A stretch of 64,000 bases of DNA from IMG/VR virus record IMGVR_UViG_3300034171_000062, positions 96,001 through 160,000 of that record; one strand, given 5' to 3'. Below the pieces are notes generated by a model. The model worked only from the letters and a program-made list of their open reading frames with translations. It was not told where the DNA came from and searched no databases. The position numbers were made by a program, and so were the translations under genes. The DNA comes from a virus (Duplodnaviria; Caudoviricetes). Shown piece by piece: positions 2-59,267 of the stretch (position 1 is its first letter; each line of letters begins with the position of its first letter).

Positions 2-1210
2 GAGAAACTCAAAGTAGTATCCGGACAATACGACGAGCGGGCTGCCACGGCTGAGAAAGCCTATAAGGAAGCGTATGTGCTGAGGGAGGCAATCCAAAAC
101 TACGCGCATCAATTCGGGCGCTTACGTACTCTGGCCCACAGCTACCCGAAAGCCCGTAATTTGTTTGACTGGCTGATGGATGACGATCGCATCTACCACA
201 ACCCGTCGCAATACACCACGGTCATAGACCGCTGGTTAAACGATTTATACCTAGGAGCAGAACTCTCCCGCCAGGAGAAGGAACTGCGCATGGTCGAAGA
301 GACAGTGACTAAGGCTAAGATGCTCAGCGACACCAACGCCGATCACATAGGCGACAGTCTGGCGGGCCTGCACAAGCAGATTCAGGCGACGTCGGACGAA
401 GTGCGATTGGCTAAAGACGATCTGACTAAGTTAGAACGTCGGGCCACACATGCCACGCGGGCCGAGAACTGGGGGCGTGAATTGGATCAGTTGTACGTCA
501 AGATCGAGCAGGACTACCAACTCATGCAAGAGTGTCTGAAGTCCGACACTTTGGCTGGGTTGATTCGAGAGCACCAGTCCGACTTGGCTATCAAGTCTCA
601 GAAGCTGAACGAAAAGAGTTCCATGGAAGGGATCATCCGCGATTTGGAGCGGTCTCTCGTCGACGTTGATCAGACCCATGAGACGCATAAGTTGTTGTGT
701 AAGGCTTTGTCTCCGACCGATGGGGTCATCGCTGAACAGATGACGGCGTTCATTAATTGTTTAACCGAACAGATGAACGAGATCTTGGAACAGCTGTACA
801 GTTACCCGTTGAAGATCCTACCTTGTGGGATTGAGTCGAACGAGTTGGATTACAAGTTTCCGTTAGTGGCGGGTAACGATCAGGTCCATGCGTACGACGT
901 CAAAGACGGATCGGAAGGACAACAGGAGATCGTTGACTTTGCGTTTAAGTTGGTGGCGTCCTTGTACTTGGGGTTCAACGATTATCCGCTGTACGTGGAT
1001 GAAGTGGGGCAGAACCAAGACGAGACACACTTGGCAAATGTGATGTCGTACATCAAACTTCTGATCGATGCGAATCGACACAATCAGTTATTTATGATCT
1101 CGCACCACGCTGCCGGCCACGGAAGCTTTACCAATGCGGATTACTTGGTGCTTCATGGGGCCAACATCAGCACCCCTCAGAAACACAACGGACACGTTGA
1201 GATGGCGTAA
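2..1210 (+). CDS. sbcC: SbcC/Rad50-like SMC ATPase, C-terminal part (5' truncated by window; phiKZ gp165-like)
   Basis: Frame is open from position 2. Long coiled coil, then ABC signature-like GSEGQQ, Walker B PLYVDE and H-loop FMISH. Confidence 0.9.
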   Translation, partial: EKLKVVSGQYDERAATAEKAYKEAYVLREAIQNYAHQFGRLRTLAHSYPKARNLFDWLMDDDRIYHNPSQYTTVIDRWLNDLYLGAELSRQEKELRMVEETVTKAKMLSDTNADHIGDSLAGLHKQIQATSDEVRLAKDDLTKLERRATHATRAENWGRELDQLYVKIEQDYQLMQECLKSDTLAGLIREHQSDLAIKSQKLNEKSSMEGIIRDLERSLVDVDQTHETHKLLCKALSPTDGVIAEQMTAFINCLTEQMNEILEQLYSYPLKILPCGIESNELDYKFPLVAGNDQVHAYDVKDGSEGQQEIVDFAFKLVASLYLGFNDYPLYVDEVGQNQDETHLANVMSYIKLLIDANRHNQLFMISHHAAGHGSFTNADYLVLHGANISTPQKHNGHVEMA

Positions 1211-34900: not shown

Positions 34901-36487
34901 AAGTACGAAAAAGGTAAGACCGGCAGCAGCTCTATGATCAGCACCTCGGCCTTATTGGCACCGGCGGCCGACGTCGACGATCCAAAGCGTGTTAACCTTA
35001 GCACCTTCGCGAGGTAACTCGCGTCGAATAACTTCCCTAAAACGGGGAACCCTCTTAACAGAGACAATCCGTTGCGAAGTCCCTCACGAGGGATGCGCTC
35101 AACGGCCATCGAAAGCTGCGGCCCGCTGGTGGGTTCAGTGACATCCGTATAGAACCGGGTGGTCGCCTTAGGGCGATTAAAGCAAGTAGAGTACAGCCCA
35201 AGCGATTGGGGTTCAGGTCTGGGGTAATCACCCACTAATGCCTGATTAAATGGAAACGGGAAGCTTCCTGATACACTCAGGAAGATGAGATGGTCTGACC
35301 CTTACGGTAACGTAGGGCGGGTGCCTAAGCGCACCGGCTTCGAGTAGCGATCGAAGTGGACATAGTGTAATTTTATCTCAATTCAAAACACTCACGTGAT
35401 CCCAGCGGAAGGGTATCGCCCGAGTCCTCTGCGCACTGGGTACGAACGGATGATCCCCCATCGAGTGGACGATCTGTTTGCGTACACGGCTAAACAAGAC
35501 GGGGAGATCACTAAGAAGGACAAATACCACGTCACCGTGACCTACAAGGACGGGTCGGAAGTAAAGGTCGAACTAGGGCGCCGTTATGGCACAGTGCCTG
35601 GTACCACCATTCCACACGACGTCGTGTGCGATTTGAACGTTGGGGCGAAGGTAAAGGAAGGCGATGCCATCTCTTACAACGCTGGGTTCTTTGAAACCGA
35701 TCCCTTGAATCCAAATCAGGTACTGATGCGAACAGGCATCATGGCCAAGACCGCGATTGTGGAACGGTCCCACACCTGGGAGGACGCCTCGGTGATCTCT
35801 GAGAAATTGGCGGAGAAACTGGGCACTAAGATAACGAAGATTAGGACGATCTTTGTGCGCTTCGATCAGACGATTCGAAACCTAGTGTCTCCTGGGACCA
35901 ACGTCGATTTGGAAACTATCCTATGTACGATTGAGGACGCCGTTACTGCAAACAACGATTTGTTCGATGAAGAAAGTCTTGACAGCCTGCGTATGATGTC
36001 GTCTAACACGCCGAAAGCCAAAATCTCGGGCGCCGTGGAACGAGTGGAAGTTTTCTACCACGGCGATTACGAAGACATGTCTGAGTCTTTGTTGACCATT
36101 GCTAAAGTGGCCGATAAAGAACGCATCAAGCGACTGAAGGCTTTGGGTAAAACTCAAACGTCTGGACAAGTGGACGGCAACGTGCGGGTCGAAAAAGATC
36201 CGTTGGAGTTGGACAGCATGGCGATTCGAGTGTACATCACTCAGCGTCTTGGGGCAGGTGTAGGCGACAAAGGCGTTTTGGGTAATCAGATGAAGACGGT
36301 CTTCAGTAATGTGATGACCGGCGAAAACCAAACCGAGAGTGGGGTGGAGTTGGATGCGATGTTCAGTTATTTGTCGATAAGTAACCGTATCATTCTCAGT
36401 CCGGAAGTAATGGGTACTACTAACACACTTCTTCGAATTATGTCTAAGAAAGTGGCCGAACGCTATTTCTCCAAGAAGGGGCAATGA
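31985..36487 (+). CDS. Virion RNA polymerase beta-like subunit (phiKZ gp178-like), spliced join(31985..34992,35368..36487), 1375 aa
   Basis: Removing 34993-35367 gives in-frame DDPKRV|NFISIQNTHVIP; exon 2 carries RpoB-like TWEDA and GVGDK...NQMK motifs. Confidence 0.92.
34993..35367 (+). mobile_element. Group I self-splicing intron (IA-like), no homing endonuclease ORF
   Basis: Exon ends in U paired with G in P1 (GUGU-UAA/UUA-GCAC); intron ends in G; P3 CUUCCC/GGGAAG, P4 AACGG/CCGUU, P7 GGCCA/UGGUC; S-like GAUGAGAUGGUCU. Confidence 0.9.
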
Positions 36488-56737: not shown

Positions 56738-58024
56738 TTAGAGAACGGCCGCTACTAACGACAACTCGGGGGTGTGAGATCGCTCTTCGGTGGACCCACC
56801 TTGACTGTAGTAGTTCATCGTGAAAGTTCTCAGCACTATGTACACCATACATCCCGTTCGCACAGCCGCTAACAAGGACTTGTTGTTAGACTTTACTGCA
56901 CGTTTGGTGATGGCTAGACTGAGGTCTCGCATTTTTAACAAAGACGGATCGGTCGATCGTGACGACATGTACAGACTGCGGAGCCGTCCAATCAATGTGG
57001 CCAAGTCGATGCTGTTTCGGAACTCCTGTCGATTCTCCCCAATGTACTCAAACGCATGCAATAACGTCTCGTCGATCAAGGCTTGGATCTTTGGGTCACC
57101 TCGACGACCGTAGTTATCGGCCATGTATTCCAGGGCGCTGGTCAAATGACGTTCTGGCATGGTGTGCATGACGTCCCCTACAATGCCCACCAGCTCGCTT
57201 CGAATGAACGTGGACCTATCGGATAGGGTGGTGTTGATGTAGCGCTTGTAGCGGCTGTTCTGGCGCGTCAGGTCACGGACGTGCATCTGTCCGTCCAAAT
57301 CCACTAGGGAAGAACGCGTCTGAACCCGAGTTGGACTCTTCTGCACTTCGTAGAAGACGTGCACCATCTTCTTTACAATCTCCCGGATGCGGCCTTGGAT
57401 GTCTCCGACCATATACTGCACTTGCTGATCGTCGTCGAATCGTTCAATGGTTTCTGAGTGTATGGAGTTGCGAGACAGAATGTCTTCACACCGAGCCTCG
57501 ATCAATGCTGCCCAACTGCCTTTCTGCTTCAGCGCAAATTTGTAACTCAACGCCGCGTAAGTAGCTTCAGCCAAGGTCCGATCTGGTTCGTATTTGAAGT
57601 TGTGCGCCATTAAGGAACTTAAGAACCGATAGTGCATGGCTCTGAGTGCGTCCATCATTCCCTGTTCTTTCTGTCGTGCAGAGAGATTGCTGGTGGTGTG
57701 AATGGCGTGTACCAACCACACACAGCTCAGATTGTAAACGTCGGTTCGCACCCGCTGCGTCGGATCGACGCTGGGAAGGGCGTGCAGTTCGTTCTTAAGA
57801 ACCACGTCATCGACACGTAGGACTTCATCAAACCAATTGTTACGGTCGGAACTGTGGAACCTCAATGGTGGGGTACCCAGTAGGTTGCCGCCTAAGAAGG
57901 CGATGTGGTCTTCGCTCTTATTCACGAAGTACCGTTCAAATTGACCGATTGCCTTTACCAGTTTAAGATCGATTTTCAGGTGTTTGAGTTCTTCAGCGAA
58001 GACCTCTTTAATGGTTCGTGCCAT
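56738..58024 (-). CDS. Conserved virion protein (phiKZ gp32-like)
   Basis: About 428 aa starting MARTIK with GAGG RBS; FLGGNLLG and YAALSYKFALKQKGSW motifs. Confidence 0.7.
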   Translation of the reverse strand: MARTIKEVFAEELKHLKIDLKLVKAIGQFERYFVNKSEDHIAFLGGNLLGTPPLRFHSSDRNNWFDEVLRVDDVVLKNELHALPSVDPTQRVRTDVYNLSCVWLVHAIHTTSNLSARQKEQGMMDALRAMHYRFLSSLMAHNFKYEPDRTLAEATYAALSYKFALKQKGSWAALIEARCEDILSRNSIHSETIERFDDDQQVQYMVGDIQGRIREIVKKMVHVFYEVQKSPTRVQTRSSLVDLDGQMHVRDLTRQNSRYKRYINTTLSDRSTFIRSELVGIVGDVMHTMPERHLTSALEYMADNYGRRGDPKIQALIDETLLHAFEYIGENRQEFRNSIDLATLIGRLRSLYMSSRSTDPSLLKMRDLSLAITKRAVKSNNKSLLAAVRTGCMVYIVLRTFTMNYYSQGGSTEERSHTPELSLVAAVL

Positions 58025-58522
58025 GACACGCCTCTCACGGTTGGTTCGTTGTCTATATAATCCGCCGCCGACCCGCCGCGGGGGGAGCGCGCGCCTGTTC
58101 AACTTGTATAGATGCTGACGACGTCCAGGGGGGTGTGTATTTTGTTTTGAAGACTGTGTATGGATTGGTCTTTATTGCATCCGATGCCTCTGTTGCTGTT
58201 AGCCTCCATCAAAAAACCCCAATCCATACTTTCCTCCTTCTCTTCACATCTCAAGTAACCCTTGCAGGGTTTTCACTTGAATATGTAATTCCTTACAGGA
58301 CGGATTTATTATTTGCCAGAAAGAGGAGCGACAGCGACCATCCTTTCGAGCTTACCGTAGTTCGGTAAGCGTTCGGAGTAGAATGGTTAGAAGGGGGTAG
58401 CGATAGTCTGCGCCGTTGCTGTATTGGGTTGTTTTCAAGGGTTTGTAGGGGCTTTTTAAATTACCCTAAAATCTGCGGCAAATCAAAACCCCCTCCGCAA
58501 AAAACTCTGGCGGTAAAGGTAC

Positions 58523-58797
58523 TATGGTATAGCACTACAGCAGTGCTAAAGGCTTGGCCACCGGTGTTGGGGTGTTACAGGTTGCACCATCGGCCTAGTT
58601 GTTGGCGTTGTCGAGGGGAGTTGGGTGTGTAGGAAGGTTTGTACGGGTTCCTTCCTGGCGCTATCTTGTTCGGTTGTGTTTGCGCATGTCTGTCGCGCTT
58701 GCGCTATTTACACCGACTCCCCTTGACTGGGCTAGTGTTATTTCCTTGTGATGTGTGAGATGAACCGGGGGGCTTCGGCTTCTCGGTTTATTTTGTT
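58523..58797 (+). ncRNA. Candidate structured non-coding RNA
   Basis: Nested long-range helices rich in G-U pairs, between a TATG and an intrinsic terminator; no credible ORF. Confidence 0.5.
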
Positions 58798-58799
58798 TT
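58763..58799 (+). terminator. Intrinsic terminator with no upstream coding gene
   Basis: AACCGGGGGGC-TTCG-GCTTCTCGGTT followed by TATTTTGTTTT. Confidence 0.8.
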
Positions 58800-58882
58800 A
58801 ACTGTATTTGAAGCACATATTACTTATGAGAGCAGCCGTTGTTGTTCACCAATTAGCTTACCTAACCTTTAGGACACTACCC

Positions 58883-59203
58883 ATGCAAGAACTGACTCTG
58901 GACAACCTACCCCAATACGCCGAAGCCGAACCAAAGTTGATCACCGCACTCTTCTCCTTGGGGACCGTAGCGAAACGTTTCGACGAAGCCGTGGCGCCTA
59001 AGAGCATCGACGTGTGGATTGCCCGCGATATGATGGAAGTTAATGCCTTCTCCGATCGGATCATTCCTGTGGGCGAGATGGAAGACCTGCCCTACCACTT
59101 GTACATAGCCACCACCGAGATCACCCAGAGTTACGTCCTGGTGCCCAGCAGCCATCGGTTGCAGATAGTTCGAGGTCAGGTGAACCCAGGCATTTGTTTA
59201 TAA
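58883..59203 (+). CDS. Hypothetical protein
   Basis: AACCTTTAGGA leader before ATG 58883; terminator follows. Confidence 0.7.
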   Translation: MQELTLDNLPQYAEAEPKLITALFSLGTVAKRFDEAVAPKSIDVWIARDMMEVNAFSDRIIPVGEMEDLPYHLYIATTEITQSYVLVPSSHRLQIVRGQVNPGICL

Positions 59204-59207
59204 TCAG

Positions 59208-59235
59208 CGGGAGGCTACGGCCTCCCCTTATGCCG
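59208..59235 (+). terminator. Hairpin followed by CTTATGCCG
   Basis: GGGAGGC-TACG-GCCTCCC-CTTATGCCG. Confidence 0.8.
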
Positions 59236-59267
59236 TCTCGTTAATCGATCCCAACGAATCTTGGGCC

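Follow-up and report, generated by a model that had tools for sequence, protein, structure and literature searches.

The locus considered here raises the question of what is made from a long interval without genes in the genome of a nucleus-forming phage. The 64,000-nt stretch of viral DNA analysed (hereafter the window) comprises bases 96001–160000 of a 170.6-kb IMG/VR viral contig, the completeness of which is estimated at 62%. Because a gp32-like gene (phrog_2921) and a chimallin gene lie on this contig and the tubulin PhuZ is encoded in its relatives, the source phage is an uncultured chimallivirus, that is, a nucleus-forming, phiKZ-like jumbo phage. A gap of ~860 nt, the largest of the region, separates the gp32-like gene from the following + strand gene, whose ATG is at 58883. 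For this gap, a first-pass annotation made from the letters alone had proposed an undescribed structured RNA of 210–270 nt from a jumbo phage, read from the + strand and equipped with its own start and stop signals. Homologues, covariation and a bias toward G-U pairs supported this proposal, and we consider it very probable that positions 58526–58799 (+), with a predicted transcript of ~274 nt (a ~237-nt body plus the terminator), constitute a real, new, conserved and structured non-coding RNA (ncRNA) gene. A 15-base complement to the leader of the chimallin gene, chmA, further suggests that the RNA may regulate chmA.

Fold, strand and predicted ends of the RNA

The minimum free energy (MFE) of 58523–58799 was −111.9 kcal/mol, as against −90.7 ± 4.6 kcal/mol in 200 dinucleotide shuffles (z −4.63). 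The minus strand likewise surpassed its own shuffles (z −5.13), and thus the folding energy alone does not give the strand. The open reading frames (ORFs) of 25–86 aa found across the six lineages described below disagree in frame, start and length, and none of those on the + strand opens with ATG; the region is therefore non-coding, in agreement with the initial judgement that it holds no credible ORF. When the whole window was scanned with Rfam 15 (4227 models) at the gathering threshold, nothing was detected at the RNA, and a permissive scan (E ≤ 10) of 57900–59100 returned three chance-level matches (E 0.76–9.9), none of them in 58523–58797 (+), as expected from the earlier statement that the RNA resembles no recognised family. 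ARAGORN detected neither a tRNA nor a tmRNA, and the RNA is present as a single copy in its own genome. The only Rfam match of the window was a group I intron (RF00028) at 34983–35317 (+; 57.2 bits, E 7e-12). A group I or other self-splicing intron was rejected as the identity of the RNA, the locus lying between divergent genes, with no exons around it, and the Intron_gpI model matching only 34983–35317.

Homologous gaps were gathered by means of the flanking proteins, and five further lineages, all of uncultured chimalliviruses, were revealed to carry the RNA, always in the gap upstream of the gp32-like gene. These are L053 (flanking protein 86% identical), L002 with L003, L038 and L039 (79%), L029 with L031 (78%), L028 (73%) and L004 (~75% over the tblastn match). 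The RNA region of the window showed only ~72–74% identity to that of L002/L003, and those of L029 and L004 were barely alignable by blastn; the same helices, built from different sequences, were found in every lineage. A covariance model (R1), based on four near-identical sequences of the L002 group and a hand-derived structure (224 positions, 58 pairs), detected the window at 131 bits (E 9e-39), as well as L053, L028, L004 and L029; the 184 kb of loci scanned gave no further match. Its E-values ranged from 1e-9 to 1e-88 for the homologues and from 1e-9 to 1e-55 for the other lineages.

Covariation in these relatives was pronounced. The pair cells were standard in 94.9% of cases, versus 32–52% when the 3' partners were slid by 1–3 columns, and compensatory change on both sides was seen in 38 of the 58 pairs, versus 5–8 in the slid controls and 15.9 ± 2.7 in shuffles, figures that are somewhat inflated by the fitting of the alignment to R1. 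The consensus helices contain 65 G-U cells versus 7 A-C cells, and the RNA is therefore read from the + strand; the G-U pairs had been taken from the outset to favour a + strand RNA, and the relatives confirmed this view. The same ratio bears on a very improbable alternative, in which the conserved unit would be a DNA-level element (a site for packaging or for the start of replication, or an array bound by proteins) or an origin-priming/R-loop transcript. Such an element would suit the largest non-coding gap of the window, situated in the head/packaging module near the terminase gene and with perfect inverted repeats nearby, and a G-rich transcript would favour R-loops; cruciforms or protein sites, however, leave the 65 G-U versus 7 A-C cells in covarying helices unexplained, no GC-skew switch occurs at the locus, and a strong unidirectional terminator ends the unit. 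The replication-origin reading was rejected, as a GC-skew switch was not found at the locus.

The fold begins with a local 5' hairpin, P1 (GCACU/AGUGC, 58532–36 with 58542–46, +), which was 100% paired and in which A-U has changed to G-C, and U-A to G-C or G-U, in L029, L004 and L053. Of the two conformations envisaged in the first-pass annotation, the local hairpin TAGCACT/AGTGCTA was thus retained; the alternative, a closing helix of TAGCACTA (58530–37) with TAGTGTTA (58733–40), paired in 53% of cells, no better than shuffled partners, and is not conserved. P1 is followed by a long hairpin of 14–16 bp, P2/P3 (58551–66 with 58585–600, +), in which 14 of the 16 pairs have changed on both sides and 93% of cells pair. 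Its apical loop (58567–58584), UUGGGGUG ... GGUUG, carries the conserved YUGGGGUG and GKUUUG. The side arm that had been drawn by hand was recovered as the top of this hairpin but not in its register, which is really GGTG (58563–66) with CACC (58585–88). The previously assumed helix of GCCTAGTT (58593–600) with GACTGGGC (58725–32), which competes with the covarying hairpin, had to be abandoned, since 63% of its cells pair, again no better than shuffled partners.

The P4 domain (58604–58733, +) consists of a short outer helix (GGC 58604–06 with GCU 58731–33) and a long helix enclosing a three-way junction, with a G-rich 5' strand (58610–58629) and a C-rich 3' strand (58709–58727). The two helices pair in 94% and 86% of cells, with 12 pairs changed on both sides, as exemplified by GUCGAGGGGAG/CUCCCCUUGAC in the window and GUCCAGAGAAC/GUUCUCUGGAC in L004. 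The near-identical contigs L031 (121–349) and L029 (1983–2212) differ by one C missing from the 3' strand of the long helix (CCCC to CCC), which is either an assembly error or a natural variant removing one pair. Within the domain, the P5 hairpin (58631–37/58650–56, +) presents a 12-nt, near-invariant loop, UUUGUACGGGUU, at 58638–58649. Its 5' stem strands, as read from the raw sequences of the six lineages, are AGGAAGG, GGGAAGG, GGAAGG, GAGAGG, AAGCGAG and ACACAAG, and the loop reads UUU(G/U)UACGGGUU throughout, varying only between G and U at position 4 and with an unpaired probability of ~0.9 in all six. P6 (58657–61/58701–05, +; 5 of 5 pairs changed on both sides, 100% paired) encloses an invariant G/U-rich strand (58662–58686) and the small hairpin P7 (GCGC 58682–85 with GCGC 58695–98, +), which varies on one side only, through G-U. 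The long helix, the AGGAAGG/CCTTCCT stem (58631–37/58650–56) and the TGGCGC/GCGCTA stem (58656–61/58701–06) had all been paired in this way by hand and were upheld by the relatives. The J6 motif GGUUGUGUUUGCGCA (58672–58686, +) in the P6-enclosed strand is invariant, occurs in two tandem copies in L029, and is the candidate seed for the chimallin mRNA leader. The scaffold thus displays three near-invariant G/U-rich single-stranded segments.

The marine relatives L055, L063 and L065, the flanking protein of which is 66% identical, have in the same place a G/U-rich structured region of 290–330 nt that runs from (A/T)ATGGTATTGGGC or TATCTTATTGAG to a hairpin plus T-run. A long G-rich/C-rich helix covaries among them (GGCCGGGGGAU/AUCCCCCGGCC in L055 versus GGUCGGAGGAC/GUCCUCCGACC in L065), and L063 has a P5-like hairpin, CAGG-UUUUUAGGGGUU-CCUG. 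A hairpin loop carries the exact 14-mer GUUGUGUUUGCGCA in L063 and UUGGUUGUG in L055 and L065, in which two the motif variant reads UUGGUUGUGCAAC. With the filters off, recognition of the marine regions by R1 was limited to the P5 hairpin of L063 (E 0.013), and full-length homology to R1 was rejected. Because R1 scores P5 only, the marine link rests on the position, the TATGG start, the P5-like loop and the GUUGUG(UUUGCGCA) motif; the marine regions are probable members of the same RNA family.

As for the start of the RNA, the TATG noted earlier at 58523 proved to be the point from which conservation runs. The sequence YTATGGTATAGC is invariant in all six lineages, the preceding ~60–105 nt are unalignable and variable in length, and conservation resumes exactly at YTATGG after this spacer; TATGG recurs in the marine L063 and L065. 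The motif (58523–58526, +) is predicted to be the core of a late-type promoter of the non-virion RNA polymerase. The late promoters of phiKZ consist of TATG, the G of which is position +1 (PMC4666361, PMC12809450), and are served by the non-virion RNA polymerase (PMC4666361). Based on this rule and on the conservation boundary, we placed the predicted 5' end at G58526, and the presumed late timing of the transcript follows solely from the phiKZ TATG rule. TATG is only about two-fold enriched genome-wide at 20–60 nt before start codons, often in the form hairpin-YTTATGCC, so that the motif taken by itself carries little weight and the conservation boundary is the better argument.

The intrinsic terminator with a UUCG loop, which had likewise been pointed out before, was located at 58763–58799 (+). 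It consists of an 11-bp stem with three G-U pairs (58763–58788) followed by the U-tract UAUUUUGUUUU (58789–58799), and its G-U pairs make it specific to the + strand. It is part of the MFE structure as a hairpin of ~17 bp. The stem covaries in L002, L028 and L053; L029 and L004 have another GC hairpin and then UUAUGCC. A GC-rich hairpin directly followed by YTTATGCCG recurs at gene ends and starts (59203–59240 and genome-wide), examples among the upstream regions being CCCTTATGCCGC (twice), CCCTTATGCCGT and CCTTTATGCCGA. This arrangement looks like a combined terminator and TATG late-promoter module, and it is used as the 3' end of the RNA in L029 and L004.

Beyond the terminator, outside the RNA and before the next gene, a promoter-like box, CACATATTAC (58814–58823, +), conforms to yAyATAtnAC in all lineages, and from this position the downstream gene seems to have its own promoter. 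The box, as TATATAGAC/CATATTAC (yAyATAtnAC), also precedes the gp32-like gene (58050–58059, −), the 106-aa gene and chmA (G000:C1 ~166975–166986, +). The early promoter class of phiKZ is AT-rich (PMC8244752), and the yAyATAtnAC box probably represents the early (virion RNA polymerase) promoter class of the present phage.

The order of promoter, structured RNA, terminator and a same-strand gene 84 nt further on is the classic layout of a riboswitch, and five lineages keep the 106-aa gene downstream. That the RNA is a cis-acting leader (a riboswitch, attenuator or thermosensor) for this gene (58883–59203) is nonetheless scarcely credible, for several reasons. An extra 57-aa gene stands between the RNA and the downstream gene in L029, the downstream gene of the marine L055 is an unrelated one of 179 aa, and in L065 and L058 a convergent DUF7484 gene takes its place, so that the RNA is not a leader. 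Moreover, the conserved promoter-like box separates the terminator from the gene, no conserved antiterminator pairing was found (58530–37/58733–40 is not conserved), and no riboswitch family matched. A predicted promoter, a terminator, a non-coding body and conservation independent of the neighbours are instead the properties of an independent trans-acting small RNA (sRNA) gene, and all of them were found at this locus.

Complementarity to the chimallin leader

The phage genome was scanned for complements of the invariant single-stranded segments. The J6 motif GGUUGUGUUUGCGCA (58672–58686) was found to be a perfect 15-nt Watson-Crick complement of UGCGCAAACACAACC at G000:C1:167149–167163, on the same contig but outside the window. 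Relative to the start codon (ATG) of a 624-aa ORF, this site spans −40 to −26, and 11 nt separate it from the AAGGAG Shine-Dalgarno (SD) sequence downstream. The ORF encodes chimallin (PF25677, E 4e-55; phrog_4795 'nuclear shell protein', E 6e-97) and is situated 12.6 kb downstream of the RNA locus. When the 18-nt seed was compared with the 120-nt leader windows of 197 ORFs, chmA ranked best (dG −27.9 kcal/mol, z −5.5), and the runner-up leaders depended on many G-U pairs. Among 2000 dinucleotide shuffles of the whole RNA, 10 gave a 15-nt perfect complement to any leader (p ~0.005). The apical loop and the 5' end had no complement above chance in the phage genome. A second contact between the RNA and the leader, GUCGAGGG/CCCUCGAC, was discarded as an 8-mer at chance level, and so were duplex predictions of the whole RNA versus all leaders, which gave meaningless full-length duplexes and left only the seed-level searches in use.

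The chmA leaders were compared in three relatives (the L002, L003 and L004 lineages). In the lineages L002/L071 and L003/L070 the leader element is unchanged and yields the 15-bp duplex again, and in L004/L072 a duplex of 12 bp with one bulge is formed (10 contiguous bp, dG −16.9). It is much more conserved than its flanks, including the sequence up to the SD. The target is C/A-rich with ACA motifs; within a palindromic hairpin (GUGUUUGC|GCAAACAC) it makes up the 3' arm, and the stretch complementary to the RNA continues 4–5 nt past this hairpin (AACC). The chmA leader as a whole is conserved over ~200 nt (G000:C1:166980–167188; L069:1381–1589), starts after the TATATAGACACC box and contains the CCUCGACGGAGG hairpin; a hairpin of this leader covaries (AGCUC...GAGCU versus AGUUC...GAACU). 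The palindrome GUGUUUGCGCAAACAC stands ~25 nt before the chmA ATG, and a near-palindrome, GGUUCUUCUUGAUCAAGAAACC, is found at the same distance in phiKZ gp54. The idea that the leader palindrome TGTTTGCGCAAACACAA is a widespread motif was dismissed, its IMG/VR matches being only the three relatives and unrelated sequences.

Based on these results, we favour an independent trans-acting ncRNA gene acting on the chmA leader, and we assign a probability of about 0.4 to this statement as a whole. Transcription would most likely start at the G of the conserved TATG late-type promoter, with a longer form from a middle-type start near 58315 being possible, and would end at the intrinsic terminator 58763–58799. 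The transcript would fold into the 5' hairpin, the 14–16 bp hairpin and the G-rich/C-rich helix closing the three-way junction. From this scaffold, the seed GGUUGUGUUUGCGCA would pair with the C/A-rich UGCGCAAACACAACC, 26–40 nt before the chimallin start codon, and would invade the 3' arm of the conserved leader hairpin through the AACC toehold. On the model of GcvB-style silencing of C/A-rich enhancers upstream of the Shine-Dalgarno sequence, the RNA would then, from the onset of late transcription, tune or shut off the translation of chimallin or the stability of its mRNA. An RNA from a late promoter and a target gene that is early and abundantly expressed would make up a coherent temporal switch. 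We regard the GcvB-like pairing itself as a tentative proposal with somewhat less than even odds, its occurrence and effect in vivo being presumed from the complementarity. It seems somewhat unlikely that the phage possesses a riboregulator that switches off or tunes shell-protein output late, or silences the chmA of a co-infecting relative sharing the site. Of the roles first suggested for the RNA, a regulatory one has thereby gained a computational lead, and packaging and decoy functions have drawn no specific support. The pairing model also predicts complements in the marine chmA leaders, namely GUUGCACAACCAA in L055 and L065 and UGCGCAAACAC in L063.

Several observations weigh against the leader-pairing proposal. 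The target search was post hoc and involved five motifs. Since both the seed and its site are invariant, no compensatory covariation exists between them, and in L004, the sole lineage with both sides changed, the changes are not compensatory. The unpaired probability of the seed is only moderate (0.2–0.65), and the best-exposed segment, the P5 loop (~0.9), had no convincing target in the phage genome. The phiKZ gp54 leader bears a near-palindromic hairpin that ends in AACC, with a different sequence and no such RNA in that phage, and thus the hairpin has a function of its own. By blastn, R1 and inspection by eye, no cultured phage was found to carry the RNA. The expression of the RNA, its transcript ends and its timing are themselves predicted from sequence. 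An sRNA that carries a seed would need a far less elaborate scaffold than one of ~270 nt. Finally, the motif of the RNA is also identical over 11–12 nt to the 5' arm of the leader palindrome; because the complement of one palindrome arm is nearly the same as identity to the other arm, a shared protein-binding motif fits nearly as well.

The last two points lead to the main rival of leader pairing, in which the RNA would be a protein-binding scaffold, sponge or decoy whose invariant G/U-rich loops bind a phage or host RNA-binding protein. In the decoy version, UGUGUUUGCGC would mimic the 5' arm of the chmA leader hairpin and compete for the same factor, like CsrB/RsmZ, 6S and Y RNAs. Three invariant single-stranded segments on covarying stems are more than one seed requires, the RNA is larger and more structured than sRNAs usually are, the ~90% unpaired P5 loop has no complementary target in the phage genome, and the tandem duplication of the motif in L029 is typical of sponges, all of which would be accounted for by such a scaffold, as would the 11–12-nt identity to one arm of the palindrome. 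On the other hand, the 15-nt complement to the 3' arm, which includes GGUU/AACC beyond the palindrome, exceeds the identity to the 5' arm in length, so that pairing fits slightly better; the 274-nt RNA contains no GGA-type or other known sponge motif, and no candidate protein was identified. We consider the scaffold or decoy role unlikely.

Upstream elements, distribution and genome setting

Upstream of the RNA, a conserved block at 58293–58420, provisionally placed on the + strand, comprises TTAC (58293–96), 19 nt, a G (58315), GCCAGAAAGAGGAGCGACAGCGACCAUCC, a hairpin and a purine-rich tract. Even L004, the most distant lineage, shares 92% identity with this block over 64 nt, and the block is more conserved than the RNA itself. 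The hairpin (58350–57/58363–70) covaries, with GCUUACCG/CGGUAAGC versus GCCCUGCG/CGCAGGGC. The block also carries GCCAGAAAGAGGAGCGACAGCGACCATCC, a purine run resembling an SD with tandem AGCGNN-AGCGAC, and GGGGGTAGCGATAGT. Variants of it were found in the marine relatives and in Burkholderia phage FLC9 (L066 ~800–900, minus strand), where a TATG stands before it and a terminator-like hairpin after it, as in a separate sRNA of ~80 nt. The middle-promoter motif of phiKZ, AAanTTACc, is centred near −24 (PMC4666361); the TTAC-N19-G geometry fits such a promoter, which makes a longer RNA form of ~485 nt possible. The block may thus mark an earlier start of a longer form, or be a separate element.

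Further upstream, an 11-bp perfect inverted repeat occupies 58158–58168/58219–58229 (GTATGGATTGG/CCAATCCATAC) and covaries over 10–11 bp, reading GAATGGATTG/CAATCCATTC in L002 and ATGGATGAGT/ACTCATCCAT in L029. Both this repeat and the upstream hairpin consist of Watson-Crick pairs only and give neither the strand nor a distinction between RNA and DNA. At 58121–58145 (+), a terminator-like hairpin plus T-run, CCAGGGGGGTGTGTATTTTGTTTT, is conserved in the relatives, and there is no gene on the + strand that it could terminate. It is situated immediately upstream of the promoter box of the gp32-like gene, with a GC-rich block (58062–58095) next to it.

In another reading, the 274 nt would be only the 3' domain of a larger unit, an RNA of 485–700 nt running from ~58315 or ~58100 to the same terminator, in which TATGGTATAGC would be conserved for RNA reasons and not as a promoter. 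Conserved elements are distributed throughout the 860-nt gap (the block 58293–58420 and the repeat 58158–68/58219–29), no convincing terminator stands between 58315 and 58526 in the window lineage, and the start at TTAC-N19-G would accord with a phiKZ middle promoter (PMC4666361). The larger unit is nevertheless quite unlikely in our estimation, because the spacer (58421–58520) is unalignable, ranges in length over ~60–105 nt and is followed by conservation exactly from TATG, the upstream block of the marine phages and FLC9 has its own hairpin and U/A-rich tail as if it were a separate small unit, and the upstream helices, made of Watson-Crick pairs only, give neither their strand nor their RNA nature.

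With respect to distribution, R1 gave no match around the gp32 homologues of phiKZ, Xoo-sp14, FLC9 and RP31, and inspection by eye of the LucasX, FLC9, RP31 and Xoo-sp14 gaps did not find the RNA. Xoo-sp14 is the closest cultured phage, with a flanking-protein identity of only 46%. Neither the gap nor the chmA leader had a blastn match among 50,697 phage records. DNA-pattern scans (four of IMG/VR and one of GTDB genomes) returned only the three known relatives or unrelated coding matches, and when metagenomes were scanned for the pattern of the upstream block, two copies of known relatives (L025 and L026) and five chance matches in coding regions were obtained.

The RNA locus sits in the head/packaging module near the terminase gene. 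Its positional anchor is the divergent gp32-like gene (56738–58024, −; phrog_2921, E 4e-137), a core chimallivirus gene with tblastn relatives in 289 phage records, all of them phiKZ-like; the phiKZ counterpart is gp32 by position, size and strand. In the relatives, the tubulin (PhuZ) gene is located a few kb downstream. A gene-free gap of 440–860 nt upstream of the gp32 homologue was present in every uncultured relative fetched, and a gap of 430–860 nt without genes was seen near this homologue in most relatives inspected (L053–L058, L063 and L065–L068). The gaps of the cultured phages FLC9 (719 nt), RP31 (627 nt) and LucasX (434 nt) differ in sequence content, and the gp32–gp33 gap of phiKZ is only 90 nt. 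The downstream 106-aa gene (58883–59203, +), to which no function was assigned, has its own ribosome-binding region besides the promoter-like box. This protein gave no Pfam or PHROG match and has only 6 relatives among 5.8 billion proteins.

Significance and comparison with known RNAs

Nucleus-forming jumbo phages serve as a major model in the study of viral compartmentalisation and of how bacterial immunity is evaded. To our knowledge, almost nothing is known of the post-transcriptional regulation of chimallin, and only a few short sRNAs have been mapped in cultured members of the group. The present locus adds a structured RNA family of ~270 nt outside Rfam, with clear comparative support, a fixed address and searchable motifs. 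If the pairing with chmA is true, phage-nucleus formation would for the first time be seen to be regulated at the RNA level, and the RNA would parallel in nature the antisense oligomers with which chmA is knocked down experimentally. Such pairing would also provide a handle on the timing of shell production, and would mean that a virus has come to use, by convergence or capture, a seed of the GcvB type. Should the pairing prove wrong, the RNA would still be a scaffold under strong constraint with three invariant loops, in need of another explanation.

Among phage-encoded structured RNAs, the phi29 packaging RNA (pRNA; RF00044) resembles the present one in having its own promoter, which is predicted in our case, and in its location in or near the head/packaging module. 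It differs in that the RNA described here had no Rfam match and in that DNA packaging proceeds without this RNA in close relatives such as phiKZ. The conserved loops of the present RNA, UUGGGGUG, UUUGUACGGGUU and GGUUGUGUUUGC, are without exception G/U-rich, and none of them is complementary to another; thus an intermolecular loop-loop ring of the pRNA type is not available; the GUAC palindrome of the P5 loop is lost in L002, L003 and L028 (UUAC). A phi29-type packaging RNA was accordingly rejected, there being neither an Rfam pRNA match nor complementary loops.

Phage-encoded RNAs that control, by base pairing, one particular message of phage or host include OOP of lambda, sar of P22, c4 of P1 and AgvB of an enterohaemorrhagic Escherichia coli (EHEC) prophage, and in this group of antisense and anti-sRNA regulators an earlier function is turned off by an RNA expressed later. 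Both OOP and sar are encoded opposite their targets and act as cis-antisense RNAs, whereas the predicted target of the present RNA is 12.6 kb away, so that it would be trans-acting. AgvB mimics a target of GcvB; the phage RNA, in contrast, mimics the GcvB seed.

The closest known RNAs by origin are the sRNAs of other nucleus-forming jumbo phages, such as sRNA005 of 201phi2-1 and the phiKZ sRNA upstream of gp182 (PMC11512511, PMC10914365). Like them, the RNA described here combines a phage promoter, in its case a predicted one, with a nearby terminator and keeps its position across genera. Those sRNAs are shorter than 250 nt, derive mostly from 5' untranslated regions (UTRs) and are located upstream of the tail gene gp182/gp277, whereas the present RNA is intergenic, lies upstream of the gp32 homologue, and ends at a terminator of its own, the next gene having a promoter-like box to itself.

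By its presumed mode of action, the RNA is best compared with GcvB (RF00022), an sRNA of enterobacteria that pairs, aided by Hfq, with C/A-rich sites at or before ribosome-binding sites. Even at E 10 the phage RNA was not detected with the GcvB covariance model; it bears no similarity to GcvB outside the seed, it is phage-encoded and built on helices of 14–20 bp and a three-way junction, and its predicted target is a phage gene, whereas GcvB acts on amino-acid transporter genes. The two nevertheless share a G/U-rich single-stranded seed, in which GGUUGUGUUUGCGCA has the 11-nt GUUGUGUUUGC and also ACGGUUGUG in common with R1 of E. coli GcvB (L080:197–402), and both end in an intrinsic terminator with a U-tail, at similar sizes of 206 nt for GcvB and ~274 nt for the phage RNA. 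Translational repression by GcvB works through ACA-rich enhancers immediately before the SD, which it masks (PMC3879156), and the element predicted to be bound by the phage RNA in the chimallin leader is likewise C/A-rich, contains ACA and stands just upstream of the SD.

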